64,000 nt of DNA from Isurus oxyrinchus (lineage: Eukaryota). Positions 393 to 63,319 of this stretch are shown here, piece by piece (the first letter of the stretch is position 1; every line of letters begins with the position of its first letter). The DNA is taken from positions 5,828,001 through 5,892,000 of the forward strand of contig JANJGN010000034.1 of NCBI GenBank assembly GCA_026770705.1. The letters run 5' to 3'. The position numbers and the translations under genes are program-made. A model generated the notes under the pieces. The model ran no database searches and was not told where the DNA came from. It was given only the letters and a program-made list of their open reading frames with translations.

Positions 393-419
393 ATGATAAG
401 CTGAAAACAAACGAAGAAG
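393..419 (+). pseudogene. Type-B micro-exon copy with defective donor (DDKLKTNEE)
   Basis: cag|ATGATAAGCTGAAAACAAACGAAGAAG|ttataa. 27 nt matching the B consensus but followed by TT, not GT; one missing G would restore the donor. Confidence 0.65.
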
Positions 420-699
420 TTATAATATCATTCTTTGAATGACATGTTAACCCAAATTGTGTGCAAATGTTATTGGCTGATAGCATGGAACAGGCCGAGT
501 CGCCAGGTAGCAGTGCCCATCTCAGTCCAGGGGTTTTGAAAGTAAACTGAATCAAAACAAAGCCAGAGCACCACTGCAGTAGCATTGTTAGTGCAGGCGA
601 TGCAGTTTCTGATGAGGTGCAAAATCGTACCTATTCTATCAGATAACAATTAAAGATCACACGCCCATCACCGTGTCACCCAGCTGACTGGAGCTCCTC

Positions 700-1920
700 A
701 ACTACCATTGCAAAATTCTGTTGAAAATACCTTTGAATAGGTATCACATTGTACCCAAATAAATATGTACAGTGAATTTGAAGTCATTAGAAAATGCATA
801 CGATGGATTTTCAGATTACTGCAAGGCAGATTGCAAGAGTAAAAGTTAACGTCTGTTATTGAGTGTTGCAGCAGTTGGGAAGTTGTCTTTGGAGGGTCTC
901 ACTATTGGGGCGATTATAGATCACAATTTTCATAAATGATTGTGACAGCGATATGAAAAAAGAAAATTTCTGCTTTTGCAGTTGCATCAACTTCTGGGCT
1001 CCCGGCAAATTGGAATAGGCAATGCTCATGAGGACAGCAGCAATTTAGAGGATAAAATTAATACCATGGTGGATTGGCAAATAATTGACAAACACATTGC
1101 AAAAAATGGCAGACACAAGGAAGCACGCTTTGCCCATACAAATTGTGAGAACTTATCATTCTTGGAACGTGCAAGTTTCCAGGGTACGGGAATGAATGCT
1201 ACAAGGAGTCCAAGTGAGCCAATCGTGTAAGTTCTGCCAGAGCATGGCAAACATATCACACAACAAAAACCAATACAATGCTTTGTAGAAGAAGGGTACC
1301 TGTGAGAAGTCAAGTCATGCTAAACGTACATCGGGCCTTTGAGTAGAGCCCATTTAGAGGACCGCATTCAATTCTATTGACAATGTTATAGATAATAAAC
1401 ACATAGCAACACTAGAGGGAGAAGAGAAGGTCCAGGGAATAATATCAAAAATCTGTGCCTCTACATCTCAGGAAAATACTAAGTTGCTGGCTCTCTTTTA
1501 TCCTGGGTGAAAAAAGGCTATGAATACCAAGAGATGACGTATGGAGGCATTTAAATTCGTAATGTATTGAGTTGGCCGATGCAGAGAGAACGTTTACTTT
1601 CATTGGGAAGAGCACAACTGGTGGTCATAAATTTATGATAGTCACCAAGAGAACCAATACTTATACAGCAGAATATTCTTTCCCTAAAAATAGGGGAACA
1701 TGTGAACTCACTATAAAGCAAGTGGATAAAGCAAATCGTATGCAATTATATTGAATTGATGAGAAAGCTAGACAAGCATATGATGGAGAAGTGATTCAGA
1801 GGGTTGCTTGAGACATATGCGCATGGATGAGGTTACATTGGTAAACCTTTCAGGATATTGTACTGGAGTATAAACTGGTTGGGCGGCCGAACGGCCTAGT
1901 TCTATGCTGCACAGCCGATG
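700..1920 (+). mobile_element. Highly decayed CR1-type LINE fragment (RT to 3' end)
   Basis: Relics of GVPQGSxLG..FINDx coding DNA near 880-950 and a CR1-like 3' end near 1880-1920; resembles the better-preserved copy at 19270-20110. Confidence 0.5.
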
Positions 1921-2243
1921 TAATCATCTGAATATAGGTAATTAGGTTGTTTTTACTTTCTCTGATTTGTTATTGGATTTCAGTTCTGAAAGAACAGCCA
2001 ACTTTAATTGCCCACCCAAACCGTCCTTGAGAAGGCATTGGTAGGTTGCCTTCTAGAATAGTTTTGATCCATGTATTGTTGGTGCACCCACATGGCTGTT
2101 TCTGAGGCATGCTACCCACATTTTCACTTCATGCCAATGCAACAGTGTTGTCTGCATAAAATGACTCTAACTCGTTTTGGGACGTATTGGTTCCCTATTG
2201 AGCGCCATGTCAATTATGTGTTTTTCTTTCTTTTTTACCCGAG

Positions 2244-2279
2244 AACGATCTAAGAACATGAAATCTTTAAGCAATTTGG
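2244..2279 (+). pseudogene. Type-A micro-exon copy with donor GT>AT (ERSKNMKSLSNL)
   Basis: Long pyrimidine tract, then gag|AACGATCTAAGAACATGAAATCTTTAAGCAATTTGG|atgaga. Exactly 36 nt; atgaga is one substitution from the A-type donor gtgaga. Confidence 0.6.
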
Positions 2280-3829
2280 ATGAGAAGTTGTTCCAAATTC
2301 GAAGCTATGCACCGATAGAGGCCGCAACAATAACTTTTGAAACGAATTACGCTCTGCTTCCGATTGGCACAGGGCATTTGCATGCAATTACAAATTTGAT
2401 GTGCGTGCCAAACTGTTCAGATTGTTTCAAAGGGCACATCACTTCCGCAAAGCCATTTGGTGAAACTGTGCATCTTGTGACGTTAATTTGTAAACAAAAT
2501 AACATGTGATTACATTGGATGTGGTTGCATATGAACGTCCAACAATTATGGGTTCTTTCATCGAGCCTGCTGAGTTTCAAAATTGGTGAAGCGCAGCAGT
2601 GGATGTTCATGCCACCTCTAAGGAGAGACAGAAATGCACAGAAAGAAAGGCTGATCGAATAAAAGAGCTTATACCCGGGGTAGGTATTTTTCCATCCCCT
2701 CAGGGAAACGAAAATATTACAGAACATCGGTTGGAATTTGCGGTCACTGTACAGTAACTTAGGGTATGGATGCTGTGATCTATGCCATACTTAAGAATCT
2801 CCCGACACCCTCCTTGAACTTGTGCCATAATTCAAAATACCCTGCATGATTAAACTACATATTCTGAGGTCTGATTATTCTGTAAGGAATTAGGAAGAAC
2901 AAAAATACTCCCCTTTTCTTATTCTTGGAAATATTAAAATCATTCCTCTTGGTGCTCGTAAGCCTGGAATATTTCATCATAACCAGACTCTCTATTCGTT
3001 AAGTTAGTGTCTTGCCATCAAAAATGTCACATATCTGTCGGCACCGAGATAAATAAACTAATGCCTTGGTAAATCTCAGTAGTGGGAACATTTTAAACAG
3101 CAATGATACTACAGCTGTCCTTTGCAACTGTACCAAAATTTATGCGTCAGACATCATGTTGGAAGGTCACAGCTGTATATCGCTCAAAGTTATCCTGCAA
3201 AGTTATCAGTTTAGCAAGCTATTAGCGATGCCCCATTTCGCAATTTAATCCCAATAGCCAAGAGTCAAATGATGATCAATTCCACCTTGCTGGGAATAAG
3301 TCGAAACTCATAAAGTAAATAATTTGCTCGTTTTCAAAGGGAAAGATGGATGCCAAAGGCTAAGGGAGGGGCACTCGGTTGTTTATTCTAATTTCCTTTG
3401 CGAGTGCTGCTGGATACGATCAAATTCGTTGACAAGCCGTATTCGCCCTTGAGAAAACTATGAGTCTGCAGTCACTGAACGTTGCTTTGTTGTTTTAAAC
3501 GTTTCAAAATTCATGCATTAGGATACAAGTAATGATGCAAATCATGAAACATTTCTTGAACAAGAGCAATGCTTAACAAATGTCAGCAATGACTTTACTT
3601 GTTCAACACACCTCTCTCTTTCTCTCTATCTATCTCTCTTGCCGCTCTCTCTCTCTCCTTCTGTGTCTCTCCCATCCTCGCTGCTGGTGTTCCCTGGCTT
3701 CAGCTGCCAGATTACCTCTTTGTGACAGACGTGGCAGGTTTGGAAATTGCTGCTGAGGGACCCCAGCTAACTACAGAAGTATACATTGTTTATGATTAAT
3801 ATTGTTGCCATTGTGCATCATTGGTATAG

Positions 3830-4560
3830 AGAGAGAGAACGATTCAAGGTGCAGCTGGTCTGCAATAAAGTTGACTCCCTTGCCCTAGTTAGTTTCTAGC
3901 TTCTTAAATGTTGTTGATGTTCTGCTGATCCTGCCAAATGGAGGGTATTGCATGACACAACTGATTTGAGCATTCTACATGGTGGACATGCTTGGGGTAG
4001 GCACGTGTTGAGTTGGTAGCCTCTTACCTGTTCTGGTTGCGTGACCATTTATATGTCTGGTGCTGTAAGTTTCTGCTTACTGAAATCCCAGAGAAAGTTA
4101 ATTCTGGGAGTTTCAGTGATAGGAATGCGAGTAAATGTCAACAGGAGTTGGTAACCTTTTATTCTGCTGGAATAGGACTTTGTCTCGCACGCAAATGTCA
4201 CTTGCCACTTTTCAGCAAAAGCCTGAATATTGCTCAGGACTTTCAAGGTATGGCTTCAGTATCGTGAATAACTAATTTTATTGTACATGTGCACTCATCT
4301 GCACATTTTCACATTTCAGTAAAGCAGCTGAAGCTGGATAGGCTTAGGGCGCTAAACTGGGGAGCTCCTGCAGTGATGGACGTGACTCAGGTGATTGCCC
4401 TCCAACAACAGTCAACATCTTCCTTTGTTGTAACTTCTCCACCCCGCTTCCCCCACCCCACCGATAATCTAGTCAGGGCCCCATGATGTAATCCTTGCTC
4501 AAATGCTGCTTCAGTATCAAGGGCAGTCATTCTCACTCCATCACTTGTGTGCAGATTTTA
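3830..4560 (-). mobile_element. Decayed non-LTR retrotransposon RT fragment
   Basis: Reverse complement reads ...NIQAFAEKWQVTF..., the post-ADD RT segment, also seen on + at about 47760-47830. Confidence 0.5.
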
Positions 4561-7039
4561 GAGAACTGTCAGCGAGCGCCCCAGAAATTGCGCAGCCTGT
4601 TCCTTTTTATACATATTTCACCTGGACGTGAACTTTAGGTCACATATCCAGGCCAACTCTAAGAGAATGATTTCAAGCTGCATAATTCTGTCTTTGCATG
4701 TCTACTATGGAGACATTCTTCCACGTCTTTGTGATTTTAAGACTTGACTATACAGGTATTTTGATTGCCGTCCTCCAAAAATCCACCTTCCTGAAACGCA
4801 GCTGTCTCGTGTCCAAATTGGCACTAACCCCCACTAACCTACGACATTGATATTTGTTGCTTCAGGATTTGCAAAGCCGGAATTTAAGGAATTGCATCCA
4901 TTCTTTGGAAACACTCCATGTGCTCGCCCCGTCGTTCCTCCTTATTCTCCTACAGTCTTAAATGTTCCATAATACCAGCTTTCATCTAACTTGTGTATTT
5001 GAAGGATTCCTTATTTGTTGCTCTTTTGCTGTTCTTTTCCTCAGCTATAAAGGCTCCTAGCTGCGGAATATATTTCCCCACATCAACACTACCCCATCCC
5101 CCTCACCCTTGGATCCCCGACACCACCCCCCATCTCCCCCACCACCCCCCACCCCCATCCATCCTCCCCCAGCCAGATTACTTATTTTTCCTGTCAAAAC
5201 CTTCATTGAATTACCGTCTTAGACTGAGCTTTAAGCCGACTGGTCAAAGGATTAAGGATTCCACAGTAGATGATCAAATGCAGGACAGATAAATGGAAAT
5301 TTAAAAACCTTTCTTTGAGTTGGCTTGTTTATGAGGTGTGCATTCTTTATCCTTGATAATTACAATGAGCAAGTTTGTCTTGCGTGGGTCGGCCTCTGAC
5401 AGTTGCCAGGAAAAGTATGGAGTTGCTCCCTCTGTAACGTAGCTTAGAGTGAGGCCGAAAAGCACTGACTCCTCCTGAAAAAGGGTATGACTCAAGAATC
5501 GTTCAAGCGAGATAACTTAACACTGACGACCTCAATGACCGTCGGGACCAACAGTGTATCTTTACGAAAATATAGCACTGCCGTATTTAAAAAGGTACAG
5601 ATGATAAACAATGATCAATACAGGGAATGCTTATGTGTGAATTACAACTGGAGCATGGACATAAGGCATCTCGTGCGGGATACTATGACTCTGTCGATCC
5701 TGGCTTAGGGCAGTAAATTTCCGCGAGCCATTCATTAGTTTATTGATATTGGTGGGGCCTTAAAATCACGCTAGAGTAAAATTCTGTCCATGGCGGGATG
5801 ACTCGGCGATTCGTGTGTCATCCAGAAGGTTGTAAAATAATACGGTGATCCCACATCCTTGAAGCAAACTGTAGAGAGGCATATCTAAACCAACATATTC
5901 ATCACATTCAAAATTAATGCTGTATCTGGGTAAACACTAAATTCGGTTGCCAATTTCATTACTAATAAAAGAATGAGCGTTTGAAAGGTCACATTTTCTC
6001 CAGCAAACTCCTGCCGAATAACATTACAATCAAGATGAATGTGTATATTTGCCTCACTTTAGAGCATGATAGTCATGCTATTGAACAGATTCTGATTATG
6101 TATTTACGACTTTCAGCAAGCCACCTTTGATATTTCTTATTTAGCTTTCAAATCAGGGACCATTGTTTCAAATTCCAAGCTGAAGGGTGAAGCATGTGAT
6201 ACATCCTTAGATTACTAATGCACGGCTGAGGGCCTGCTATACTGTATTTCAGTTGAGATGCTTTGCAATGGATGTAAAAGATTCCCAGGAGCTTCTAGGT
6301 AATACAGAAGGAAACCACCATCCCCCACACCGCCCATTCAATTGTCCATATAATTACACGGTAAACAGGTCAACCACTTTTTTTTACTAGATTCTGCCTG
6401 AGCGTTATTTCAAGCAGTATCGTCTTCCTTTGCACAAAATCAATTAGACATATATATTTTTTAAAGATTTATTTTCTTTGTTCTTTTTCCCTTTGGATTT
6501 GCTGCCTCCCATCCTCCCCTCTTCCTCTTCCTATTTTTCTTTCTTTCTTTCATTATTTTTTCCTGTTACTTGGAAACCTGTGTGTTCAAATAATGCATTG
6601 AATGAAGAACCTTTTGGTACATGGCCAGAGTCAGCCGAAAGCTCACATTAATTTCAGCAGAAACTGGATATTGTTGAATAAAAAGTTTTTGTCGAAGTTT
6701 TTCACCTATATTTTGCAAGGCGAAAAGCTTTGACAAAAAATGTATCTTTTTTCAGCAAGAATTAGGTTATGTAAAGCAAAATACAATTGTATACCAGAAA
6801 CTATGTAAGTGCGAGAGGAAAAAATTGAAATCCAGAAAATATTGATATGCATTTGTGAAGTTGGAGGTAGCTGCTGTGTAGTCTGGTCGCATAAATGTTC
6901 CAAATTGACCGAATTAGCCTTTTGAAGATTCTGGTTTGGTGTGTGAAGATTTGTTTTAGTGGCTCAATATAATTTACTGAATACTCCCTGCCTCTTGAAG
7001 TAAGCACATCAGTTTTTTTTTTCCATTAATTTAACACAT

Positions 7040-7075
7040 AACTGAAGACATGCAAAGGCTCTTTGAATGCTTTTG
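7040..7075 (+). pseudogene. Type-A micro-exon copy, both splice sites mutated (ELKTCKGSLNAF)
   Basis: cat|AACTGAAGACATGCAAAGGCTCTTTGAATGCTTTTG|gagaga. CAG>CAT and GT>GA; L2/C5/L9/F12 pattern kept; lies about 1 kb upstream of a B exon. Confidence 0.7.
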
Positions 7076-8058
7076 GAGAGACAAATATTTCCTACATACT
7101 TAATATTTTTCAAAAGCATCCCCTTTATTTGACACTCTAAAAACGGTGTTCTATATATTATACAAATTATGAAACAAGTATCTGTTTATAGATACTTTAT
7201 TTTAAAGCAAATTCATTGTTAACCGTTAGATGCAGAGTCCCGTATTTAACTAATATATGTAGCAAGCCTGTAAAGGAGCGTTTTCCGAAAATGATATGAT
7301 AAAACCTACCAGGTTAAGAAAACTGTAGTCACGCTTTGCTAAAATTCTTTGCACAATGGCAAATATAAAATCCACCATGGACGAGTATTATTTTCCATTG
7401 TAGAAAGTTACCTCACAGAAGAGTATATTTTGTCCCTTCGAGCCACCATTGGGTAATATAATGACATATATCATAAAACCACTTTCAGGCTCATGGCCAA
7501 TAACCTTGAAGGCTAGGACACTTGAAGGGCATATCCGGGTAAATTAAAAGATTGAAGGCCTCTTCCACCCCTCAAGGTAGTGTGTACGAACCTCCTGCAA
7601 TTCTCGGGTTGAAAAGGAGTATGCCCACCAAACCCGCTTGAACTTTGTACTTCATGACTTAAATCTAGGCAGATGGTTACGAACATCCTAGGCCTTCCTA
7701 GCAAAAAAATCTCGACACCTCCTAATGTTTTACACTCTATTTAACTCTCCACTATGTGCATTCTCTATTGCAAAATAAACAAACGAGGAAACTTCAATTT
7801 CCAAACAAAATTTTCTTCACAGCTATGTTTGTTCGGGTCGGACAATAGCCTCCTATAACTTTTCTAATTCATCTCCAATTCACTGTCTTAATGTTTAGCC
7901 TGCCGAAATAAGGAATTGAAAAATTTTGGTTTTCTTTTCAAATACCACTATCGTTTGTGGTGGCTCGGCTGATTCTATTGTATTTAATGGAAAATTGAGT
8001 GCAAAAAAACATTATGATTAACTCGACGCTACTCGAAAATATGTTTATTCCCTAACAG

Positions 8059-8079
8059 AGGATAAGCTCAAAGCAGCAG
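8059..8079 (+). CDS. Type-B micro-exon, possibly shortened to 21 nt (EDKLKAA) via an internal donor
   Basis: cctaacag|AGGATAAGCTCAAAGCAGCAG|gtaaag. The 27-nt version (EDKLKAAGK, to 8085) has no GT after it. Confidence 0.55.
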
Positions 8080-8139
8080 GTAAAGCAGATGTAGGCGAAG
8101 CAGATGCTGTTTTAAATTATATAATAATTAATGCAGTAC

Positions 8140-8870
8140 AAAAATAAGAGAGCCTGGAAAAATTCAGCAGGTCTGGCAACATTTGTGGTGAGGAACACAG
8201 TTAACGTTTCGAGTCTGCATGACTCTTCAACAGAACCTAGTAAAAGAGGAAGTGGAATGAAATATAACCTGGTATAAGAGGGGTTGGGACAAGGAGAGCT
8301 GAATAGCGGGGCTGTGATACGTGGAGATACACAAAATGAAAAAGAGGTGTTGAAGTTACTGATATTATCTAAGGAATGTGCTAATTAAGGGTAGATGGCA
8401 GCACAAGCAAGGCACAGATAGCCGTATTGCGGGCTGGGTGGTGTGAAGGAATGGTAAAAGGCCAAAAGGTAGAGGTAAAACAATGGATGGAAATACATTT
8501 AAAAACAATGGAAATAGGTGGCAAAATAAACATCTATATCAATTATTCTAAAATTTGGGGGTGGGGGGGAGGGTGGGGGTGGCGGGGATGGGTAAGAGGG
8601 TGAGGATAAAGGAAACAGTTCATGACCTAAAATTGTTGAATTCAATATTCAGTCCAAAAGACTATAAAGTGCCAAATCGGAAAATAAGGTGCTGTTCCTC
8701 CAGTTTGTGTTGAGCTTCAATGGAACAATGCAACAGTCCAAGGACGCACATGTGGGCATAAGAGCAGGGTGGAGTGTTGAAATGACAAGCGACAGGACGT
8801 TCTGGGTAATGCTTGTTGACAGACCGAAGGTGTTCTTCCAATTGGTCACACAGTCTGCGTTTGGTCTGTA
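8140..8870 (-). mobile_element. Penelope-like element fragment (GIY-YIG endonuclease C-terminus and 3' region)
   Basis: Minus strand 8630-8795 translates VACHFNTPPCSYAHMCVLGLLHCSIEAQHKLEEQHLIFRFGTL*SFGLNIEFNN, a typical Penelope EN C-terminus with one stop. Confidence 0.75.
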
Positions 8871-9319
8871 TGTTTATTTTCCAAATATCAGTTGGGTCAT
8901 TTTGAAAAAGCTGTCTGAAATGTTCCAGATTTTTACAAAATCCTGGATCCCACTTGCATTTTAATTCAACAAATAAAATTCAATGATATACACGAGTGGA
9001 CACTGGTACCTATGGAAGTTGATCAAATATTAGAAATAAGTCCACCCTCCCACTGACCCAGAAAGACTTGAACAGGATGCAATGCTTTTCAAGGCAATTC
9101 TGGTATCCAGTTTGGTGACTACATGTTATGATAGGAGTAAGATTTCTTTTCCAAAGCATAGTCATTTCCATTTGGTGCATATTGTTTTGATCACTTTTGC
9201 TGCTGTCATAATCCTAGTGCTCCAACTCCTCCTAGTCTTCCCCTTCCTCCTCCAATCTTACATTCGGTTGCTCAATTAAATCTCTCACCTTTCACATTTT
9301 CTTAGTTATTTTACAAACA

Positions 9320-9960
9320 AACATTTAACATACAAATTAAGTCCTGGTCAAGGCCACCAGACCCTTCGATTCTGCTCCACCATTCGAAAAGAAAATGACT
9401 GAGGGGCCTAGAAATTCAACTCCACATTCCTGTCTGCCCCCGATAACATTTCCCCACCAACAATCACCCCCACCCCCAGCCCGCAGGCATTTTCTTAGCA
9501 AAATCTACCTACATTATTAAAATATTCAAAGATTCTGCATGCACAGCCCTTTGAAACAGAGCTTCCCAAAGACTCACTACAATCTAAGAGAAAAGCGGAC
9601 TCCTCCTCATCTCTGTCTATAATGGGCGACCCTTAATTTTAAAAAGTAGTCCCTATTTCTAGATTTTCAACAAGAGGAAGCATCCTTTTTCGCATCCACA
9701 TGGTTAGGCCCGCTTTGGATCTTATATGTTTCACACAAGTCAACTTTTACTATTCTAAACTCCAGCGATTACAATGCTGGCCTGACAAATAGTTCCTTAT
9801 AAGACAACTGGCCCGTTAAAGGTGTTTAGCTACCAAATCTTGGCTGAACTGCTTCCAAAACATTTCGATCATTCATTAAATAAAGAGAATAACAGTGATT
9901 ATAGTACTCCAGATGTGGCCTCAACAATGCCTCAATATTTCTTAATTAATATTACGTCCT
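9320..9960 (-). mobile_element. CR1-type LINE 3' fragment
   Basis: Reverse complement of a CR1 3' region; visibly homologous to 38860-39420. Confidence 0.65.
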
Positions 9961-10329
9961 ATCGTGTGGTTACTGTTATCTGGCCTGTACATCTTTCTCA
10001 CATTTCATGCCTCCCTCATTCCTTAATCCACAGAAACAGCTTTTCTCTCCTGGTGCTCTGAAGTTTCTATTGCATTGCCATCATCCTCAATTAACATAAG
10101 CAACGCCTCCACAATTCCCTATTTTTCTATCATTCTTAAATATCACATGGCCTTCAGTCATCAGGTCCCAGTCTATTTAACCCTGCAGGAATGCCTCTGG
10201 AATGACAATTGTGTCATTCTTGTTCTTTTTTCAATTTGGACTATCAATTCACCTGTTTTGTTTCGAAAGCTGCTTGCCCTCAGCTACAGGATCTTAAATG
10301 TTAATATGTTTGTAACCTCTAACCTTATC

Positions 10330-11400: not shown

Positions 11401-11454
11401 TTATACTATCTAACTAGTTTTAGTTCATTATTGTATTAATTAACTGAATTAACG

Positions 11455-11985
11455 TGCTCCTCCACTTCTTCATCCTCCTTCTTTCCCTTGTTCTCTGCTT
11501 CTTCCATCACCACAACCCCCTCATACTTCCCTTGCGTTCCCCCTCCTCATATTTTCCAACTATACCTTTGTAACCTGCTCCTCATCCTTCTCTTCCTATT
11601 GTTTCTCCTGATGCTTTCCACTTGGGCCCTCCATTACTCTTTCCGTGTTTCTCCAGCTCCTCAAAAAGTTTCTTCAACTTTTCCAATTATCTTCCAGCGT
11701 CATTCATTTGTTACTCCCCCTCTTGCTTCTCCTTCTCATCCTGGTATTAGTTTTGCTCTTTTTCTTCCTCCACCGTCTGACTGTACTGCTCCTGAACTTC
11801 TTCCCCCTCAGCTGCCTCTACTTTTTCACACTCTGTCATGATGCCTCCCCCTCCTCCCCCTCTGCTGGTGGCTGCTCCATATCGTTTTCAGAGCACCTTA
11901 ATCTGCTAAGACCCTAATACCTTCTGTGTGGAAAACCCTCACCAAGCTCTTGCATCACTCTCTCTCTCTATCCTCTCTCTCTCTA
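11455..11985. repeat. Pyrimidine-rich low-complexity tract ending in (CT)n
   Basis: C/T-dominated sequence directly visible; it explains the Leu/Pro/Ser-rich spurious ORFs. Confidence 0.85.
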
Positions 11986-12114
11986 NNNNNNNNNNNNNNN
12001 NNNNNNNNNNNNNNNNNNNNNNNNNNNNNNNNNNNNNNNNNNNNNNNNNNNNNNNNNNNNNNNNNNNNNNNNNNNNNNNNNNNNNNNNNNNNNNNNNNNN
12101 NNNNNNNNNNNNNN
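11986..12114. other. Assembly gap (129 N)
   Basis: Run of N between a CT repeat and aca... Confidence 0.99.
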
Positions 12115-55500: not shown

Positions 55501-58500
55501 AATATGTAGCACAAGCAGCTGGCCATAGTGTTTTGAACTTAGTGACAAAGATATCAATCAGAGACTTGTAGTTTCTGTTGGGGGAGAGGGTGGAAGAGAC
55601 AGGGGGGAGGGATTTAAGTAGACTTAGAGGCAAGAGTTACAATAGAGGATGATCCAACAATTTTGAGCTGTGATGACTGCAATATCGATAAAGTCTAAGA
55701 GACCCTAAAAGTTCTAGAGTAGGCTCTTGCAGACTCACCTCATGTAACTTCATTTCTAAAGGGATATAACTGAAAAATCTGAAGTTGATGTCTCAGTTTA
55801 CGAGGAAGTGAGTCACTGCGGTAATGCCTGAAAAATGCATTATTTAGTCAAATGTAATATGAAGGTTCTCCAATTTAGTAAACAATGTGAAATCATCACA
55901 ATGGGAAAATTATCACTCATATACGCAAAGGGAAGAATTAATAATTTTCCCTTGAAAATTAAGTTACCATTTATTTTCTATTGAATTTGCAGAGCTAATG
56001 GATTGTCAAGATGTTCTGAAAAATTTCGGTGAATAAAGCACTTTAATTGCATAATTACATTTTCAGCTAATTAATTGTGGTAGAGTCAAACAATTCTTCA
56101 AGGAACATTCGAAATTTCCAAGTAAAATACAAACACCTAAGTGTGTTTCTTTTGAGATAGTGAATGTTTTGTTAGGATATCAGATGAGCAAGTCTTTTGG
56201 GCACCGTGTGGAAATGCCTCCGGCAGCTCCTTGCCACTACACTACAGCAAGTAATTAAGATAAAGGGGGGTTAACTTTTCGAGTCCATACAACTCTTCTT
56301 CACAGCTGGTTATGGAGTTAATGCAGGGAAGTAGATTTAAGGCACAACCAGATTTGTTATATTCTTCATGAATGGAGGGGAAGGTTAGAGGAGCAAAATG
56401 GCCTAATTCTGCTCTATTCTCATATATTCTTACATTGTTCAGGGGCGACATCATTATTTCTGCTTTGTTAAAAATGCACAGAGCCAAAGTCTGTACCAGC
56501 TCCATTGGATTGAGAATTATGAATCTTGAGTTGCAATCACAAGAATCTCAGAGTTTTACTCACTAATCCAGACTATTTAAAACAATGCTTCCTTTTGGAG
56601 AATAAAGCAAATTAAATGACGGTTAAAGACCTTAAAGTTTACTTTTGTTAGGATATGAACAACAGGAGCGAACAGTCAATGATCAGGAAAAGGAAGAGGG
56701 AGTTGTAAACTATGCTATGGGATGTCTGATACCGAATTGCAGATCACGTTTTTATGCTCATTGCCACTGCATTTACGATAACTTTTCTATTGCTGATATT
56801 TCCTTTCTGATTCACAGAAAATGTAAAGAAGGGTAAGTATACGTATCTTACAGAAAATGAACTTGCAAATACGTTGCTCTAAAAAATCATCTCTGGTGGA
56901 ATCAGCCCAATATCCCGTCGAGTATCTTGCCTGATGTTGAATATAGAGTTATTAAGTTTTTTGCACGTCCTACTGTGACATCCCCCCTCCCTATCTCTGT
57001 AACCTTCCACAGCTCAAAAATCTTTTTTAATCCACTTAATTTGCTTCCTTAATTTCCGATTTAGTACTTTCCCAGCCCCCACCTCTACACGTTTAAGACA
57101 TTCGCTAAAAACTGTGCCTCAGAGTGATTGGCTTGATATCTTTCATAGTATATCTCTACCTGTTTGTTGTGGTTTGTTACTGTTTCTTCCATACCGAAGT
57201 ATGTTTCTGCCTTCTTCATCGTTGTCTGTTTAGTAAAATATATTAACCTCTTCAGCCAAATCCAAAGAAGGCACATACCGCATGAAGGTCCCCAGGAGAC
57301 GTTGGAGTCGAGTGAACATGAGCCAGGATGTGACCTCTTCCAAAAGCGAAAATTTTTAAGAGAACCTGGAAGGCTGATAAAATATGCATCTGATGGACTT
57401 AAAGACTCATGCTCTTTCTCTCCGCCTTGCAGAGCTAAACACCTGCCAGGATACCGTAAAAGATTTAGGTGAGCCAATCAGTATTGATGCCTGCTGAATT
57501 TCCGGACCATTTGCTTACTCTTAAATGAAGCAAAGCTCCAAGTGTTTCTAAAGCACAATGGAGAAAGAACAATCCTGGAGCATTAATGCAGTTTTGTTTT
57601 AAAGATGGTGAACTTCAAAGCAATGACAGATTGTTCTGCATGGAGAGCTGAACTGCCAGTCAAAGTGTTTACGTGTAAAGCTCAGTCAGAATCTTGGCAA
57701 GTGTCTTTATGGATTGTTCAAAGTTCAGAATGATTCACATAAATCATATCATGGATAAAACATGGCCTGTGTTGTAGGAGCAGTTGCTGGCATTCACTTG
57801 ACAGACTGATGTTGAGTCACGTGTGTATTAAGATTCACTGACTACAATGGAATTAAATAGTTGGGTAAGGTACATAATCATCCCTCTCTATGGAATCGCA
57901 CATATTGCCTGGTTATCCAAAATTATATTTCATCGTGTAGAGCTTAGGTAATGTGAATGGTACCGAATCAGCACTCATCGTCACATTTCACAAATTTTAA
58001 ATGTTGTTGGATGCAAGGTTAAAAAAAAGACCTGGACATTTTTCACGGAAAGGGCGATAAAGAGAACAATTAAATGACCTTAGGAATTTGGCTTCATTTA
58101 CGTTACCTCCAAGCTCTGTGGTGTGCATTTGCCGTCGATTGTGCCACTGCGAGGTAAAGAGGAAATCTTCACTATTCAAACTCGTTTGTGCGATAAGAAA
58201 CGTAGCAAGTTGCGAGCTACCAATGAATAAATGGCTGTAGTCAACTTTCCAAGCGTTGTTCCATACAATTTTCAATGTGTGCCACGTGCTCAAGTAGAGG
58301 TATGTTTGACCTGCACTGTCGGCCACATGCAGAATAGTTTGGTATTCAGTGAAATCTTTCCACAGTAGGTCACGGATTCGTTCATTTTATTATTTATTCT
58401 TGATTTGTTTCACAGATCAATTAAAAAAAGGTCAGTGGAAATATGCTCTAGCACCTCACCATCTAAGTGCATGAAAATAAACACGAGGAAAGATGGATTG

Positions 58501-61500
58501 GCAGTGATTACACATTCCAATTTTAAGTAACTTTTAAATTATTATTATATCTAACTCCATCTGCGGCCTCGTCTTTCCATATTTCCTTGAGAATCTTCTG
58601 CCCTTTCAACTGGCTGCAATTTCATTTTCACACCACGCTGGCCTTTTACCGATCGTGCTGTTCCTTTACCTAACCAATGGCATTTTATGGCTTCTGTAGT
58701 ATGTCCCAAGGCTCTGAAGAATGTTTGCTAAACATTGCGCCTCACACCCTCCTTCCTCCTTTAACATACACATATTTCCTGGGCTGTTTCCAAAGCCCAA
58801 CCCTCATCCTCACCCCGAAGTCTGACCAATAATTTAAGTTTCGCTCAATTCATGTTGAAATGCAGTGAGGCTCCTTACGCCCTGTGGCACTTCGGTTATC
58901 GAGAAGGCCTGCTTGGAACCTGAGAAATACTCAGCAGACAATGAGCTGCATTACATGTCCTCGGAACAAAAAGAGGAATACATGTCATCTTAAACAACTC
59001 AGTGGCTCCTCTGGCGAACGAAGGCTGCAAAAGAGACAAACCTCTAATGGTTTCAGTTTTCTGCCATTGGATCATGCTATCGTTCACTAAATACAGTCGT
59101 GGAAGATGGTGTGCAATGGTTTCCCCTTCCTAAAATTTTGCCAGCACAGGCATTTGTCTTTCTGCGTACATCTATCATAACATTAGGTGTCCACCGAACG
59201 TTGGAGTGAGCATTGTTGCGTTGTATCAAAACGCTCACTTTAACTACGCTAGAACCACATTTGGTCAATTGAGAAAGCGAGCATTTGAAGGTCGCAACAC
59301 CAACATTGACAGGAAGCTCATGATCTGTTGTTTGTGCTTGATTCCGACGTTACTCTATGGGGCTCCAAGATGGAAAACGGACAGTAGGCACCTCAAGTCC
59401 CTGTTAAAACTGGCTGTGCAAGGATTTGCATTTAGTGGGAGGACAGAAAGGTGGACGCTGTCACCTGTCAGGTATCAGACTCCCAAAGCAGGTATTGTTC
59501 TCCAAGATTAGCGAGGACAGATGCACCAGAGGAGGGCAGAGGACGATATTAAGGGATGTGCTGAAAAGTAACATGAAGAAAATGAATTAATCACATCGAC
59601 ATCTCAGTGAACACCGTTTATACATTAAGCCAAATGGCACCAGGCACTTTAGGAAGGACCCCAGCACTTTGAAAAAGAACGACTATAAAATGATTCAGGA
59701 AAACAGGAGAGGCCAAAGGAACACAGCATGCCCCGAATTAAGGATACACATCCTGACACCCAAAATGGCTTGGGTGCATGAAGTCTGCAGTTCCCGAATC
59801 TGCCTCTTCAGCCAACTCAGGCTCATGATAGACAATTGTCCGCTCTACTGAGGCGCAGCCAGTAATAACATTATCTGCACGCAATTAATCACGTGTCCCA
59901 ATGTGGCCCGATGTTGCATCACCTCCATTTTTGTCGAAACTGTTTCACAGGAAAAAATTATGTTCTTTAGCTGGATTAAGTCACTGCATACATGCAAATT
60001 ACCCTTTCCTGTCAACAGTCTATTTTCAATCTCTACCACCAAAGTTTCTGCCGACAAATCTGAGGAAACAATTGCTTGCAGGACGACTTCTCGAGGGTTC
60101 TTACAGTACAGTTAACCAAGTGGGAGACAACCAAATTTCACAGAGTGAAAGTAAACATTTCTACCATAATCAAGGAATACAGCTTGTCATAGATTGGTTA
60201 CAGCAAAGAAAGAGGCTATTGGGCTGTTTGGTGTGGTAGGCGGATCTCTGGGTGATTATTTTGGCTGTTCCCATTGTCCAGAACTTCACGTGCAAAGCAT
60301 GCAATTTGCTTGCTATTCAAAGAATTATCCAGCTCCCGATTAAAAGCCACAATTATCACTTCGCTGAGCTCATTCTTAGGCATTGCATTTAAGAACGTAA
60401 TGGCGCTCTGCACGTGTATCTTTTTCCCCATATCCCCTTTGGTTCTCTCTCAGTTCATGTTAAATCAATATCTTCCACTTCTTAACCATTCCGGATGGGA
60501 AGAGTCTAGAACTGCCTAATATGTTCAGGCCCCGTCCTGAATTTGAGAATGCCCATCAAATCTCGTTTCAATCATATTGTATCTATGTACAACCGGTCTA
60601 AATTCCCAAATCTTTCCACCTAGAAGAAACAATCATCTCTGCAAACATTCGCATGTGCACACTAACTACCCTCTCAAACGACTTCACTTCGCCCTTAACA
60701 ATGAAGTCGAAAATATGATGCAGTTCCCGAGTTGAAGTCGAACTAGCGGTTAAACAGGTTTACCATAACTTGTTTTCCTTGGCTGTCTAGTCATCTATTT
60801 ATAAAGTCGAGTATTTCATCTGGCTTCGTGACAGTCTTTTCAATCTGCCCTGCATGTTGCAACCATTTGTCCTCTTATACTCCCAAAGCCCCATCAGCAG
60901 CTTCAATCCCATTTGGAATGCCATCACAACTTGTTCATTATCTCCTCCTACCAAAATGAATCACGTCATGACTCTCACTACTAATTTCATAGCAATAGTT
61001 CCTCCAATTCCACCAGTCCTTCTGCTTCCGTTTGACGTATTCACCATCTTCCTTGGAATTCATAGCCCTGTAAAATCTGAAAACTTTGAAGTTTTGCCCT
61101 GGACACTCATGTTTAGGTCCCTGATGCATACCATGTAGAAAGATTGGAAGGGGGAAACTGCATAGTTTTGTTGACACTTCAGTCTGGATCATCCATTTAA
61201 TGAATTACAGAGAAAAGTGACTGTCAACAAGCTGTAAAAGACCTAGGTGAGCAAAACATTCCCGGTGTCGCTTTCAATAACCTCTCTTAATATTTTGAAC
61301 CATTAAGCAAATACGTTTATATCCTTTAAAAAGTGAAGTAATCAATTCAGGCACACGTCGTTTGTTGATTGGTCCACCTTTGCATCTGTTGATTCAAAAT
61401 AAAGAAAATACTGGGCAGAAAGCAAAACAGGCCATTAATCCGATACTGGGCAGTGTGAATTTCCGACGCTCCATGCGTCATGATTATTGGCGCTTCTTGT

Positions 61501-63319
61501 CACAACTCTTGCTCAATCCTGCACACTAACGGAATGATGAACATTGTTAACTTGATCGATTTGGTACCACATTGGAAAGTGTTCTGACCAATAACAAAAC
61601 TCCTCCCACTGGTGAAAAATGTTGTTTAATCTTAGAATTTTTGGTTTGTTTATCATGTAATCCCGAACAGAAGAAAAACTCAACGCAAAAGAAAAAGGTA
61701 CCTGATCTAACGTTTTTTTCTTCAAGAAGCCAAAGATTGACAATGGCCGGTTGATTCTTCACATGATTTGTTTTGTTTTTGTATGAATGTTTTATGTTTT
61801 TTTTTAAATAAGCAGGTTGCTAGAATGTACCCTAAGGGTTGGCAGCAGACGAATCCCATACAAGGGCTCCATAGTTTCGAGTTACGTGGGCACATTTTCG
61901 GATGTTGTGTCACACAAGGTTGGAAGACAATAAATAACCTGTAAACTGAAGAAATGGATAAGGAATTCACTTAATGCTCCTTAAACACGGTCGTGGTAAC
62001 AACGAACTACTCGCTAACACATTGAATTTAGAAATAAAACGTACGTGATGGTTAAGAATGATATGTTTGGTGATATAGTTTATGCAAGAGGTCTTGTGAC
62101 GACGTTGTGGTGTCACAACTTTAGACCAGAAGCTCTGGGTTCAAGTCTTACTTCAGGAATTGATGGCTGTTGAAGCTGCTTTTGTAAGGTGGCCGGCTGT
62201 ATTGCTTAGGAACTTGTCAAACCTTCCAATGTGCCTGGCAGCAGGTGCTCAGTTCGGGGGAGATGCTGGACAGCCAGGTTTTAGAAAGCAACGTCAAATG
62301 ACTGTCGTACTTTGACAAGCATAATCATGACCACATCCAGTGGAAACGCATGATCACAAACACCGTCTGAATACAAGCTAGCTGAAAACTAGGAATGAAA
62401 TAACATATGTGGTACGTTGTTCTGGTGGAGGATAGCCTTCGGCATGGGACACTTGATTGGACGGACAAATATTTTCCTCTTATTTATATTGGTCGGACCG
62501 CCTTCTCAGTGTCGAATTCCATGGACTTTTTTTTTGGAAATGCAACTCACTCCAAATACGCAAGGTGAAAAGACAGAGGGCTCGCTATAGTTGATCGGTG
62601 ACGTGCCTAAACAGGGAAAAGGACTGTGTATCTGCTTAAATAATGTAATTGAACAATCGTTGACAGGAAGAACTTGGCAAAGTCCCGCAGGAAAATTAAG
62701 GCTGCAAAAGCATTTGTAGCACAGTTGTGCATGTTAATTTGCAAACACAAGCACGGTGCATGTGCAATGTCTTATATTTTAAAGCATGCACAATATGCAA
62801 TATAATATCCTAAAGTATGCCATGCAACTATTGGATTACCGTCTTGCGGAGATTTAATGTGATGTCCCTGTATATTATTGCACAATCTGTACTCAAGTAA
62901 GGTTAGCGATGCCAGCCTTGCCCTTAATGATACTGCAACGCCGACATTCTGCTCTTCCTTAAAATGCAGTACGAATTGGCAGCCCAATTTAGACCTCGTA
63001 TTTTTATGAATATGATAAAAGGATCAGCTGATGTAAATACTCTGCCGTTATTTATGTTGAGTTTAAGTAGGCGCTTCACGTGAAGCGAGCGGCAGTGCCT
63101 ATGGGTAATATGGAATGGGATATGTCGAAGTATGGAGTGCGTGGAAGGACATAATCCACTCTTTCGAATACATTGACCTGTACTATAAATTCTGCTTAAT
63201 AAGTCGGGAGGGCGGGTGGGAAGAAATGGGAAAACGTGCTGAAATTGAAATAATGGTGAAACTTTCACATCTCACCATTTTAGAGATTCTAACGTGTCAA
63301 GAGTCTTTAAAGGATTCAG
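13513..63319 (+). CDS. Multi-exon gene segment: 27 intact phase-1 micro-exons (12x36 nt, 13x27 nt, 2x15 nt) encoding about 271 aa of a 21-residue-repeat coiled coil; gene ends outside window
   Basis: Each exon is bounded by AG and GT, has a length divisible by 3, is phase 1 and has no stop. Spliced peptide: EVTLKNKEK ELTMCQENVGDL GSKLNGKEK ELAKCLESLSAL DEKLKAKAK DLTGCEDNLDKL GEELKLNSK EQKKMSDALKDL EEKLKTKVI ELNNCQVSSEDL DDKLKETGK EVKVCQDALKDL EKKLKGRVE ELAKCEEALDIL GDTLKAKEK GEKLIAKEK EFDDFQKKC KRELTDKTK ELENLKQKMKDL EEKYKAKEQ ELMDCQDVLKNF ENVKK ELNTCQDTVKDL DQLKK EKSDCQQAVKDL EEKLNAKEK EILTCQESLKDS. Confidence 0.85.
13900..14830 (+). mobile_element. Decayed CR1-type LINE 3' fragment
   Basis: Same order of CR1 3' landmarks as 19270-20110, heavily diverged. 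Confidence 0.45.
14958..14993 (+). CDS. Micro-exon A (36 nt) ELTMCQENVGDL
   Basis: tttcag|AACTA...TTTAG|gtgaga. Confidence 0.85.
15390..15880 (+). mobile_element. Non-LTR retrotransposon 3' tail (family shared with 36440-37020)
   Basis: Direct similarity: caagtcacataccattctgacttgg...gtcaaaatcctg...ccaccaatgtctcaa...ggaataaatgttggc, followed by an A-rich tail. Confidence 0.7.
17390..17416 (+). CDS. Micro-exon B (27 nt) GSKLNGKEK
   Basis: tcacag|GTTCG...AAAGG|gtaagt. Confidence 0.85.
18835..19215. repeat. Degenerate (CA)n-like low-complexity tract
   Basis: Visible CA/AC periodicity. Confidence 0.9.
19270..20110 (+). mobile_element. 5'-truncated CR1-type LINE
   Basis: Encodes YNPEKPEVMHFGRT...LFSFSLKQRRLRGSLITVYKIMRGI, characteristic of the CR1 ORF2 C-terminus, with frameshifts and a 3' UTR. 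Confidence 0.85.
20120..20380. repeat. Degenerate (CA)n-like tract, continuation of 18835-19215 beyond the CR1 insertion
   Basis: Visible CA periodicity. Confidence 0.85.
20421..20456 (+). CDS. Micro-exon A (36 nt) ELAKCLESLSAL
   Basis: ttccag|AGCTA...ATTAG|gtaggc. Confidence 0.85.
21288..21314 (+). CDS. Micro-exon B (27 nt) DEKLKAKAK
   Basis: ttgcag|ATGAA...CAAAG|gtaaat. Confidence 0.85.
23037..23072 (+). CDS. Micro-exon A (36 nt) DLTGCEDNLDKL
   Basis: ttccag|ATTTA...ATTAG|gttggg. Confidence 0.8.
23651..23677 (+). CDS. Micro-exon B (27 nt) GEELKLNSK
   Basis: taacag|GGGAA...GAAAG|gtagtt. Confidence 0.8.
23700..24350 (+). mobile_element. Decayed CR1-type LINE 3' fragment
   Basis: CR1 3' landmarks (gaaacaaggaagttatg..., gcagaggagattcagtaaaat..., gtgaaggtttatggggaag). 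Confidence 0.45.
24520..26170. repeat. Unclassified interspersed element with a G-rich, strand-skewed interior
   Basis: Abrupt shift to G-run-rich sequence (24840-25870) inside an AT-rich intron; similar architecture at 48830-49990. Confidence 0.45.
26290..26325 (+). CDS. Micro-exon A (36 nt) EQKKMSDALKDL (no Cys)
   Basis: ttgtag|AACAG...CTTAG|gtgaga. Confidence 0.85.
26560..26840 (+). mobile_element. Short copy of the non-LTR 3' tail family
   Basis: gcagcagatgcattggaacacc...acacaattctgacttggaacgatattacc matches 15610-15720 and 36750-36860. Confidence 0.6.
27130..27380 (+). mobile_element. Decayed Deu-domain-like SINE fragment
   Basis: ccccgtctgccc...gtggacgttaaa...aacagattatttggtcat resembles the DeuSINE/AmnSINE core; weaker relatives near 6150-6450, 21540-21740 and 51960-52300. 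Confidence 0.4.
28081..28107 (+). CDS. Micro-exon B (27 nt) EEKLKTKVI
   Basis: tcacag|AAGAA...CATAG|gtaact. Confidence 0.85.
29778..29813 (+). CDS. Micro-exon A (36 nt) ELNNCQVSSEDL
   Basis: ttacag|AGCTA...CTTAG|gtgaga. Confidence 0.85.
30941..30967 (+). CDS. Micro-exon B (27 nt) DDKLKETGK
   Basis: gaacag|ATGAT...GAAAG|gtacac. Confidence 0.85.
31100..32300 (-). mobile_element. Decayed RTE-clade LINE RT fragment
   Basis: Minus-strand peptides SEPFKIHHRVKHIFVLAPTVF (cf. GVKQGCVLAPTLF) and RELIYTDDDTL (cf. LYADD). Confidence 0.65.
33400..34350 (+). mobile_element. Decayed CR1-type LINE 3' fragment
   Basis: atgaagttcaaacccgacaaag...ggtggtcaagaagccacttggaatatgtgtcttcatt... parallels 19320-19520. 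Confidence 0.55.
34879..34914 (+). CDS. Micro-exon A (36 nt) EVKVCQDALKDL
   Basis: ttatag|AGGTA...TTTAG|gtgagt. Confidence 0.85.
35975..36001 (+). CDS. Micro-exon B (27 nt) EKKLKGRVE
   Basis: tggtag|AGAAA...TGAAG|gtattg. Confidence 0.75.
36440..37020 (+). mobile_element. Non-LTR retrotransposon 3' end with poly(A)
   Basis: Codes LSTIYKAQVRSVLEYS...LKKINSIQEKAAR (LINE ORF2 C-terminus); ends caataaacgctggccaagccagcgaaacccacatcc...aaaaaaaa. Confidence 0.8.
37131..37166 (+). CDS. Micro-exon A (36 nt) ELAKCEEALDIL
   Basis: ctgtag|AATTG...TTTAG|gtgaga. Confidence 0.85.
   Translation, partial: NWRNVKKLWTF
37738..37764 (+). CDS. Micro-exon B (27 nt) GDTLKAKEK
   Basis: aaaaag|GAGAT...AAAAG|gtatat (AAG acceptor, weaker). 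Confidence 0.75.
38860..39960 (-). mobile_element. CR1-type LINE fragment (RT C-terminus to 3' end)
   Basis: Reverse complement contains GPQLFTIHIND and AKLADNTN-like RT relics near 39720-39820; homologous to 9320-9960. Confidence 0.7.
40110..40560 (-). mobile_element. Inverted copy of the non-LTR 3' tail family
   Basis: ccaggattttgacccagcaactgtgaaggaac is the reverse complement of the 36825-36860 motif. Confidence 0.75.
42500..42535 (+). pseudogene. Degenerate type-A copy (DLRLCQISVKCI), splice sites not canonical
   Basis: atg|ATCTCCGCCTCTGTCAAATCTCAGTGAAGTGTATCG|ggttaa. L2/C5/Q6/V9/I12 pattern; sits about 0.9 kb before the B exon at 43427, where an A exon is expected. Confidence 0.5.
42590..43340 (+). 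mobile_element. Decayed L2-type LINE 3' fragment
   Basis: ctcattaacgcctttgtt...ctgcaatcttgactggcctacc and terminal gcgtgctatagaaataaag resemble L2 3' ends. Confidence 0.45.
43427..43453 (+). CDS. Micro-exon B (27 nt) GEKLIAKEK
   Basis: ttacag|GAGAA...AAAAG|gtgatg. Confidence 0.8.
44040..44640 (+). mobile_element. RTE-clade LINE fragment (endonuclease-RT linker)
   Basis: NRWVEKANEIYPYMDQHNMHGFIQSINTIHG resembles RTE/BovB WWxxKAxEIQxxADxxNMxxFFxAIKxIYGP. Confidence 0.55.
45481..45830 (+). mobile_element. tRNA-derived SINE
   Basis: 5' ggggaggcggttgcc... A-box-like head, body ccatttggttcac...ccgtccttacctg...gtgattccagacc, and a LINE-like tail; paralogues at 47240-47550 (+) and 48410-48780 (-). 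Confidence 0.65.
46988..47014 (+). CDS. Atypical 27-nt micro-exon EFDDFQKKC (A-like start)
   Basis: Pyrimidine tract ctttattttctctcaag|AATTT...ATGTA|gtaagt; strong splice sites, phase 1. Confidence 0.6.
47240..47550 (+). mobile_element. tRNA-derived SINE (second copy)
   Basis: ggtggcgtagtg A-box; tail gaatgctggcctagccagcgaagccacattccatgaacg. Confidence 0.6.
47740..48390 (+). mobile_element. Decayed non-LTR retrotransposon RT/3' fragment
   Basis: MQQILGNVQAWADD and downstream similarity to 36440-36800. Confidence 0.5.
48410..48780 (-). mobile_element. tRNA-derived SINE (inverted copy)
   Basis: Ends cattaccgctacaccaccatctcc, the reverse complement of the SINE head. Confidence 0.55.
48830..49990. 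repeat. Unclassified element with a G-rich interior
   Basis: G/T-skewed block 49290-49740; architecture similar to 24520-26170. Confidence 0.35.
51746..51772 (+). CDS. Micro-exon B (27 nt) (K/E)RELTDKTK
   Basis: ttgcag|AAAGA...TAAAG|gtaaaa. Confidence 0.8.
52434..52469 (+). CDS. Micro-exon A (36 nt) ELENLKQKMKDL (no Cys)
   Basis: tttcag|AATTA...CTTAG|gtgagc. Confidence 0.85.
53554..53580 (+). CDS. Micro-exon B (27 nt) EEKYKAKEQ
   Basis: taacag|AAGAG...GCAAG|gtgaac. Confidence 0.85.
53850..55700 (-). mobile_element. Decayed L2-type LINE
   Basis: Minus-strand QVSHCYHTETTSTIISN (cf. QSGFRxxHSTETALxKVxND), with LLPLSLLKS-type RT relics upstream. Confidence 0.55.
55993..56028 (+). CDS. Micro-exon A (36 nt) ELMDCQDVLKNF
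   Basis: ttgcag|AGCTA...TTTCG|gtgaat. Confidence 0.85.
56818..56832 (+). CDS. Short micro-exon (15 nt) ENVKK in a B slot
   Basis: tcacag|AAAATGTAAAGAAGG|gtaagt. Confidence 0.75.
57433..57468 (+). CDS. Micro-exon A (36 nt) ELNTCQDTVKDL
   Basis: ttgcag|AGCTA...TTTAG|gtgagc. Confidence 0.85.
58416..58430 (+). CDS. Short micro-exon (15 nt) DQLKK in a B slot
   Basis: tcacag|ATCAATTAAAAAAAG|gtcagt. Confidence 0.75.
59150..59850 (+). mobile_element. RTE-clade LINE 3' fragment
   Basis: ARTTFGQLRKRAFEGRNTNIDRKLMICCLCLIPTLLYGAPRWKTDSRHLKSL matches RTE/BovB ASxAFGRLRKRVF...PTLLYGxETWTxYxRHLKxL. Confidence 0.7.
60250..61100 (-). mobile_element. Decayed CR1-type LINE 3' fragment
   Basis: Minus strand DWWNWRNYCYEISSESHDVIHFGRRR (cf. 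W..W.M.FN..KC.VMHFGR). Confidence 0.55.
61211..61246 (+). CDS. Micro-exon A (36 nt) EKSDCQQAVKDL
   Basis: ttacag|AGAAA...CCTAG|gtgagc. Confidence 0.85.
61671..61697 (+). CDS. Micro-exon B (27 nt) EEKLNAKEK
   Basis: gaacag|AAGAA...AAAAG|gtacct. Confidence 0.85.
63284..63319 (+). CDS. Micro-exon A (36 nt) EILTCQESLKDS
   Basis: ttttag|AGATT...TTCAG|gtggga. Confidence 0.8.

Follow-up and report, generated by a model that had tools for sequence, protein, structure and literature searches.

A predicted giant gene of about 380–400 micro-exons in Isurus oxyrinchus that would encode a coiled-coil rod closed by a B30.2 domain

The question raised by this locus is whether short segments of 36 and 27 nt, set hundreds to thousands of nucleotides apart on one strand of Isurus oxyrinchus DNA, are exons of a single gene, and what such a gene would encode. 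The window, that is, the whole stretch of 64,000 nucleotides that was analysed, corresponds to positions 5,828,001–5,892,000 of contig JANJGN010000034.1 (C34) in a genome of 4.98 Gb. The original prediction, made from the letters of the window, was that alternating micro-exons build the middle of a large rod-like protein.

Micro-exons of the window, their register and their conservation

Using repeat families and position weight matrix (PWM) scans of the window, we found 28 intact micro-exons at 13,513–63,319 on the plus strand (Table 1). All of them are bounded by AG and GT, lie in phase 1-1, are multiples of 3 in length and are free of stops. Thirteen measure 36 nt (A), thirteen 27 nt (twelve of type B and one, at 46,988, of a second 27-nt class) and two 15 nt, which gives 849 nt or 283 codons in total. 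The predicted sum of 27 exons, 813 nt and 271 aa was not reproduced exactly. The predicted junctions 14993>17390, 34914>35975 and 61246>61671 coincide with exon ends found here and the expected coding share of under 2% was measured as 1.7%. The introns span 424–4,731 nt. At one splice threshold, the plus strand yielded 13 candidates with a length of 36 nt and 11 with 27 nt, and the minus strand none of either kind; in leave-one-out PWM scoring, true exons reached 22–60 (A) and 16–44 (B), and the best minus-strand score was below 0. The alternation of A and B, described beforehand as near-strict, is strict over the first 17 exons (13,513–43,453) but is later interrupted by the exon at 46,988 and the two 15-nt exons.

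The interval first assigned to the array, 393..63319, holds intact exons from 13,513 onwards, whereas its start is made up of decayed ones. Six consecutive copies there have no canonical donor at the usual length; copy 12,779 also carries a stop, and copy 8,059 retains a possible 21-nt donor. In a duplicate of the gene, the copies at 2,244, 3,338, 7,040 and 12,779 are intact, 8,059 is ambiguous in both genes, and 393 lies outside the compared stretch. Since the lost block amounts to three B+A pairs, the intact exons on its two sides continue the order A, B. Elsewhere in the window, a weak A-like segment at 24,220–24,255, with a stop and no GT, is equally degenerate in the paralog and is either an older decayed exon or chance.

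The peptide spliced from the window has a peak period of 3.50 and a heptad score of 51.8, compared with 31.6 ± 3.6 for shuffled exon orders, none of 300 of which scored as high. Gene-wide, no shuffle out of 100 reached the real score in four of six blocks, and two did in the 5' block. In the 21-nt block, 19 of 100 did; its exons are one heptad each, so that it is insensitive to order and provides no test of one register. Leu makes up 68% of position a; position d is occupied by Cys (29%), Leu (29%) and Lys (24%), and in the window Glu, Lys and Gln abound at e and g. The a/d heptad core proposed to arise across joined exons is thus present, and its register depends on exon order. All 11 register-assigned Cys of the window fall at d; of 147 Cys gene-wide, 117 could be assigned to the register, in which Cys was given no weight, and 80 of these 117 are at d. 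Register breaks are frequent in the repeat block (46 stutters and 15 stammers), some of them perhaps from missed exons. The 12+9 split described earlier holds as one module but not as the sole rule, as blocks of 7 aa, 5 aa and 9+9 occur elsewhere in the gene.

The window is collinear with the tandem duplicate, 1.1 Mb away. Of its 28 exons, 27 were alignable, and in every one of these AG, GT and the open frame are preserved, with pN 0.083, pS 0.195 and an intron mismatch of 17.7% over 56,491 nt; dN/dS is 0.39 for this comparison and 0.37–0.41 over repeats, window and B30.2 exon. Downstream, nine units of ~26–30 kb lie between ten anchor exons. When one unit was compared with the other eight, none of 416 splice bases had changed in 104 exon comparisons and no stop had appeared (pN 0.078, pS 0.194, introns 17.1%), for which P is about 1e-34 at the ~17% intron divergence. 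Purifying selection acts on frame and splice sites, and the window exons almost certainly belong to a functional gene. Each of the eight units differs from the reference unit by 16.8–17.4%, a depth equal to that of the gene duplication, which suggests one old burst. Three sequence patterns searched genome-wide gave 12, 5 and 6 matches and no control matches; all 23 lie on the plus strand of C34 at 5.6–7.2 Mb, so the segments are not a dispersed repeat. Two of the outcomes named beforehand as damaging to the prediction, a lack of frame and splice-site conservation and a genome-wide dispersed repeat, thus did not appear: paralogous copies kept both frame and splice sites, and the patterns stayed within one region of C34.

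Table 1. Features of the predicted gene (positions in the window unless prefixed C34)
Feature	Position	Strand	Remark
Window	1..64000	+	internal slice of the predicted gene
Probable non-coding first exon	C34:4,848,607	+	ends here, at conserved donor
Most 5' coding exon found	C34:4,859,457-4,859,567	+	111 nt
Six consecutive decayed exon copies	393..12814	+	3 x 63 nt; 393 B, 2244 A, 3338 B, 7040 A, 8059 B, 12779 A
27-nt exon B	13513..13539	+	intact
36-nt exon A	14958..14993	+	intact
27-nt exon B	17390..17416	+	intact
36-nt exon A	20421..20456	+	intact
27-nt exon B	21288..21314	+	intact
36-nt exon A	23037..23072	+	intact
27-nt exon B	23651..23677	+	intact
36-nt exon A	26290..26325	+	intact
27-nt exon B	28081..28107	+	intact
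36-nt exon A	29778..29813	+	intact
27-nt exon B	30941..30967	+	intact
36-nt exon A	34879..34914	+	intact
27-nt exon B	35975..36001	+	intact
36-nt exon A	37131..37166	+	intact
27-nt exon B	37738..37764	+	intact; weak acceptor, kept in paralog; hand-restored in gene-wide model
36-nt exon A	42008..42043	+	intact
27-nt exon B	43427..43453	+	intact
27-nt exon, second class	46988..47014	+	intact here and in paralog; first residue hydrophobic, A at end
27-nt exon B	51746..51772	+	intact
36-nt exon A	52434..52469	+	intact
27-nt exon B	53554..53580	+	intact
36-nt exon A	55993..56028	+	intact
15-nt exon	56818..56832	+	intact
36-nt exon A	57433..57468	+	intact; opens first ~28-kb higher-order repeat unit
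15-nt exon	58416..58430	+	intact
36-nt exon A	61211..61246	+	intact
27-nt exon B	61671..61697	+	intact
36-nt exon A	63284..63319	+	intact; past end of compared paralog stretch
Terminal exon, B30.2/SPRY	C34:6,395,819-6,396,339	+	Pfam SPRY E 1.8e-13

Extent and ends of the predicted gene

We examined in full the span C34:4.817–6.40 Mb (1.58 Mb, 129 N). The micro-exon array occupies 1.55 Mb of one strand and continues ~0.97 Mb upstream and 0.50 Mb downstream of the window, there as far as a B30.2 exon, which supports the prediction that the window holds the middle of a large rod-like protein. Automatic calling returned 351 micro-exons (156 of 27, 139 of 36, 30 of 21 and 26 of 15 nt), with two passes on the minus strand. 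A second 27-nt class contributed 29 more, with no minus-strand pass, to give 380 automatic exons, and 21 added by hand brought the number to 401. Some of these additions may be false, because 44 plus-strand and 25 minus-strand candidates pass the loose rule behind most of them. The splice matrices were trained on these very exons, and the minus strand served as control. Exon sizes range from 15 to 36 nt and average 29 nt; 31 of the 401 are 21-nt heptad exons, and most others measure 27 or 36 nt. The model that begins with the 111-nt exon and ends at the stop has 4,077 codons with no internal stop, 0.8% of the 1.55 Mb. At the coiled-coil rise of 0.1485 nm per residue, a rod of 3,867 residues, if continuous, would measure ~570 nm. 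Fifteen gaps of more than 15 kb separate called exons, the largest being 44 kb, and exon classes are grouped in blocks along the gene. Judged from its sequence, the array is likely one gene of about 380–400 micro-exons.

In the nine repeat units, a 36-nt-type exon (C34:5,912,922 and eight equivalents downstream) has AA for the acceptor AG, and all nine have an AG nine bases inward that leaves a frame of 27 nt open, which points to an acceptor shift that has become fixed; nine shifted-acceptor 27-nt candidates were left out of the 401. Contigs of three presumed-RNA runs did not cover this gene's B30.2 exon, and four presumed-RNA runs covered the neighbouring paralog's exon in one low-depth bin only; neither result is evidence either way. 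One of the runs, X1, had the character of DNA from a related organism; in a single stretch of 400 nt it showed two copies, with differences of about 5% and 10%.

At the 3' end, the last micro-exon (21 nt) precedes the single B30.2 exon of the whole 1.58-Mb span, a domain that had been among the termini suggested for the downstream side. Its best PDB match is BTN3A1 (E 7e-20); the two histidines of the BTN3A1 pocket align to Ser here. AATAAA signals of this exon occupy equivalent positions in the duplicate. Ig and transmembrane exons, which the likeness to BG and butyrophilin genes had led one to expect, did not turn up in the 1.58-Mb span. Eleven Ig-motif probes, taken from B30.2 proteins or from the nectin-like V exon, gave no match to it, nor did motif scans; as the nectin-like control was likewise missed by these probes, a diverged Ig could have gone unnoticed. 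Neither strand of the span had a strong hydrophobic phase 1-1 exon of 66–159 nt, and 25 of 41 RING-bearing probes found no RING or B-box in the gene span by tblastn at E 0.01. With no Ig, transmembrane, RING or leader exon found, membership in the butyrophilin, BG or TRIM group is not established for the gene.

Beyond each duplicate's B30.2 exon, at a distance of 17–28 kb, comes a nectin/PVR-like IgV exon, which is intact at C34:7,513,578 and broken (stop, frame change) at C34:6,424,3xx, about 9 kb from the duplication breakpoint. No other Ig exon follows in the next 40 kb, and related V exons occur at C34:13.07–13.73 Mb. This V exon was considered as the gene's 5' end and ruled out by its position and broken state. 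At C34:5,384,900–5,389,000 (minus strand) and in other introns there are reverse-transcriptase-like retroelement fragments, among them long minus-strand reading frames of Penelope-like appearance.

At the 5' end, the 111-nt exon is matched at a single further place in the genome, 4,005,506, and together with the next two exons is collinear with the neighbouring paralog. Some 11 kb upstream of it, a donor and about 500 nt are conserved in three paralogs; the stretch before this donor (4848607) has no reading frame common to the three, which would fit a promoter and a non-coding first exon. An earlier donor candidate at C34:4846558 was rejected, as this gene shares it with the duplicate alone, whereas 4848607 is common to three paralogs. 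The first nine codons of the 111-nt exon, read by inspection, are hydrophobic and vary mostly silently between paralogs, and the neighbour gene has no ATG at the start of this exon. Considering both, a coding exon is probably missing upstream, and it may encode a leader. Five scans for a leader exon conserved between paralogs gave none above control, the N-termini of relatives matched this locus no better than the opposite strand, and the 111-nt exon had no Pfam match and no significant match to the chimaera model. A tandem duplication of about 4.828–6.434 Mb gave rise to the duplicate, which later lost a segment of 240 kb that contained the 111-nt exon; the duplicate's exons remain under selection, and an in-frame ATG is present in the first micro-exon called beyond the deletion.

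Two further features were seen on this side of the gene. At C34:~4,844,700, 4 kb upstream of the probable first exon, a non-coding stretch rich in TAAT/ATTA motifs contains a 60-nt window that is 100% identical between the duplicates, making it a candidate enhancer. At C34:3,975,000–4,005,500, the 5' ends of two family members apparently stand head to head within about 30 kb: minus-strand micro-exons begin at 3,974,961, and the conserved donor of the plus-strand gene is at 3,998,628.

Relatives in cartilaginous fishes

Five related B30.2 exons were found on C34, at 2.71(−), 3.47(−), 4.82(+), 6.40(+) and 7.50(+) Mb, among 150 scored of 455 candidates. All five have micro-exon candidates upstream, though only one each beside the two minus-strand exons. 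Most of the 150 scored matches lie in one very large cluster on contig C21 (82.9–118.2 Mb), which is probably a TRIM/butyrophilin expansion.

In a quick tree of 55 rows picked by score, the five C34 exons and 11 database proteins form one clade (SH-aLRT 100), apart from 39 other rows, with no verified butyrophilin among the rows. The nine named members come from chimaera (Callorhinchus XP_042192744 / XP_007898089, named 'nuclear-pore anchor-like' and 'myosin-2 heavy chain-like', and XP_042191566-8), skate (XP_055510696), electric ray (Narcine XP_069775384-90), catshark (XP_038668997, XP_038672306-10), bamboo shark (Chiloscyllium GCC29436), epaulette shark (Hemiscyllium XP_060706632) and basking shark (Cetorhinus XP_078422387); the remaining two are P0005, which clusters with the skate model, and P0006. 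Within this quick tree of rows picked by score, the clade appears confined to cartilaginous fishes. As it includes chimaeras, the family would be more than 400 million years old.

That automatic annotation may miss or truncate such a gene agrees with what is seen in these relatives, whose database models have 175–1,722 aa (mostly 175–460 aa), compared with ~4,080 aa for the gene here, under automatic and unrelated names such as TRIM39/58/69-like, A33-like, BTN3A1-like, nuclear-pore anchor-like and myosin-like. In seven relatives scanned with Pfam, SPRY alone passed the cut-off, PRY was weak, and there was no RING or B-box. Most models have a rod-like region before B30.2, and their isoforms or versions differ mostly by 9 or 12 residues, which would fit the micro-exon sizes, with some gaps of 6, 7, 10, 16 or 18. 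The 1,722-aa chimaera model has a rod-like region of ~1,500 residues and a family-type B30.2, and matches the last 250 residues of the gene at 29% (E 2e-41). Its N-terminus is hydrophobic, the same in two versions, and is followed by basic clusters; that of the skate model is hydrophobic too. Both could be read-through of a pyrimidine tract, and the catshark, electric-ray and short chimaera models have no hydrophobic N-terminus. None of 534 candidates was a longer relative at E 1e-25, a cut-off so strict that this is weak evidence; one of 26 candidates was a relative of near length, and the chimaera C-terminal region found only its own two models among 632 candidates. An AlphaFold single-sequence model of the skate protein (mean pLDDT 45) was too poor for use. 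The literature gave no description of a chondrichthyan coiled-coil–B30.2 family or its models, as far as the available texts go.

Proposed product and comparison with known systems

In the scheme that we favour, some 380–400 phase-1 micro-exons would be spliced into a coiled-coil rod of ~3,900 residues with a terminal B30.2/SPRY domain. Leu at a with Glu and Lys at e and g suggests, by composition alone, a parallel dimer, and since no leader, Ig or transmembrane exon was found, a cytosolic location appears plausible. The product would then be a soluble, probably intracellular, parallel two-chain tether or scaffold, holding two B30.2 heads up to ~0.5 µm from its other end, where the heads would bind a partner. 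Cys at d may form interchain cross-links, a position that suits such disulfides in designed coiled coils. Hard keratins and sperm-tail structures are intracellular fibres that oxidise late; d-Cys fits secretion but also fibres of this kind, so the location is not settled by Cys. Because all exons are phase 1-1, the gain or loss of any one of them leaves the frame open, and because blocks of 7, 12+9 or larger keep the register, rod length can change with the core intact; the gene has changed by tandem duplication, deletion and decay of such blocks. We see about even odds that one 1.55-Mb gene encodes such a parallel tether, soluble, probably intracellular and tipped with B30.2 heads. We lean slightly towards the broader reading of one ~12.3-kb transcript from roughly 400 exons, a ~570-nm coiled coil with a ladder of core Cys and B30.2 heads, and an old, undescribed cartilaginous-fish family whose length evolves by register-preserving blocks.

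The same rod could instead be secreted or ER-targeted, a missed leader joining the 111-nt exon, and act as a disulfide-stapled extracellular fibre with a B30.2 tip. The concentration of Cys at d, the hydrophobic N-termini of the chimaera and skate models and the coding-like conservation at the 111-nt exon start are all consistent with this. We nevertheless consider it rather unlikely, given the five fruitless leader searches, relatives' N-termini that match no better than the opposite strand and may come from the pyrimidine tract, the several models without a hydrophobic N-terminus, and a duplicate that lost the 111-nt exon yet still appears functional. It is less probable again that the exons are real but never all joined, with several promoters or block splicing yielding shorter rods on one B30.2 head. 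Such an arrangement would account for the short models of most relatives with isoforms differing by 9-residue blocks, for six consecutive exons having decayed together, and for the long gaps and block-wise exon classes. The span, however, has one terminal domain exon only, the 5' exons match those of the neighbouring paralog, 0.8 Mb from that paralog's B30.2, selection in the mid-gene repeats is as strong as in the window, and read-mapping across micro-exons would be expected to leave short database models in any case.

We judge very improbable a membrane receptor of butyrophilin/BG type with an extreme cytoplasmic tail, its Ig and transmembrane exons diverged or taken from the nearby nectin-like V. 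In the quick tree the B30.2 domains stand apart as a separate clade, no Ig or transmembrane exon was found upstream (by Ig probes that missed their control), and the duplicate gene is preceded by a broken V exon and this gene by none; all this is set against BTN3A1 as the best solved match of the terminal domain, the nectin-like V exon past each duplicate's B30.2 exon, and the 21-nt heptad exons of BG tails in the available text of PMC4046983. A dead gene or dispersed repeat, to which the decayed copies in the window might point, is scarcely credible beside the unchanged splice bases at 17% intron divergence, a dN/dS of about 0.4 and the confinement of every pattern match to one strand of one C34 region. 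On sequence grounds, the giant gene thus appears real, strongly selected and largely unannotated, probably as a variant of the heptad-exon and B30.2 design. Its multi-megabase family (five genes on one contig; relatives in chimaera, skate, ray and shark) would be stored in databases as short fragments.

In overall design, the nearest known proteins are the enterophilins of guinea-pig intestine, which are soluble and carry extended heptad repeats before a C-terminal B30.2; they are mammalian and far shorter. In the enterophilin design a long heptad array is joined to B30.2 with no Ig or transmembrane part, and the predicted gene here shows this arrangement as far as the transmembrane scan and the Ig probes, which missed their control, can tell. 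Enterophilin-1 is cited with SNX1 in the available part of PMC13749957. TRIM-B30.2 proteins likewise combine a coiled coil with PRY-SPRY, the origin of the relatives' database names, but 25 probes found no RING/B-box in the gene span, and in the quick tree the B30.2 here lies in a separate clade.

Butyrophilins have heptad repeats followed by a terminal B30.2 in the available text of PMC4046983, PMC8813856 and PMC12841164. The gene shares both, with BTN3A1 as best PDB match, but it has about 550 heptads where those texts speak of 'a few', and IgV, IgC and transmembrane exons were not found here (with Ig probes that missed the control). As far as PMC4046983 is available, chicken BG tails use 13–36 exons of 21 or 24 nt per gene, the number varying, in proteins with IgV and a transmembrane region and no B30.2 at the end. 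Like the gene here, BG genes and the zipper protein write a coiled coil in small exons of varying number, whereas the present gene has about ten times more exons, mostly of 27 or 36 nt, with register held per exon pair, and has B30.2 while Ig and transmembrane exons were not found. Heptad exons and B30.2 are already familiar from BG and butyrophilin genes; what is unfamiliar is the absence of detected Ig or membrane parts, the pairwise register and the scale.

In that scale the gene recalls titin, a sequence of unrelated type that also has hundreds of exons and internal multi-exon duplications. If joined in one transcript, its exons would place it among the most exon-rich vertebrate genes known to us, with less than 1% coding and above the 364 exons given for human TTN in the available text of PMC6279932; elephant-shark connectin has 300 exons in 238 kb in that of PMC12241362. 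It would then offer a natural case for studying the accurate splicing of micro-exons that follow one another by the hundred, and the way in which exon modules of 5, 7, 9 and 12 residues stay in coiled-coil register. Compared with human and elephant-shark titin, the 380–401 called micro-exons here spread over 1.55 Mb, yet encode only ~4,000 aa.
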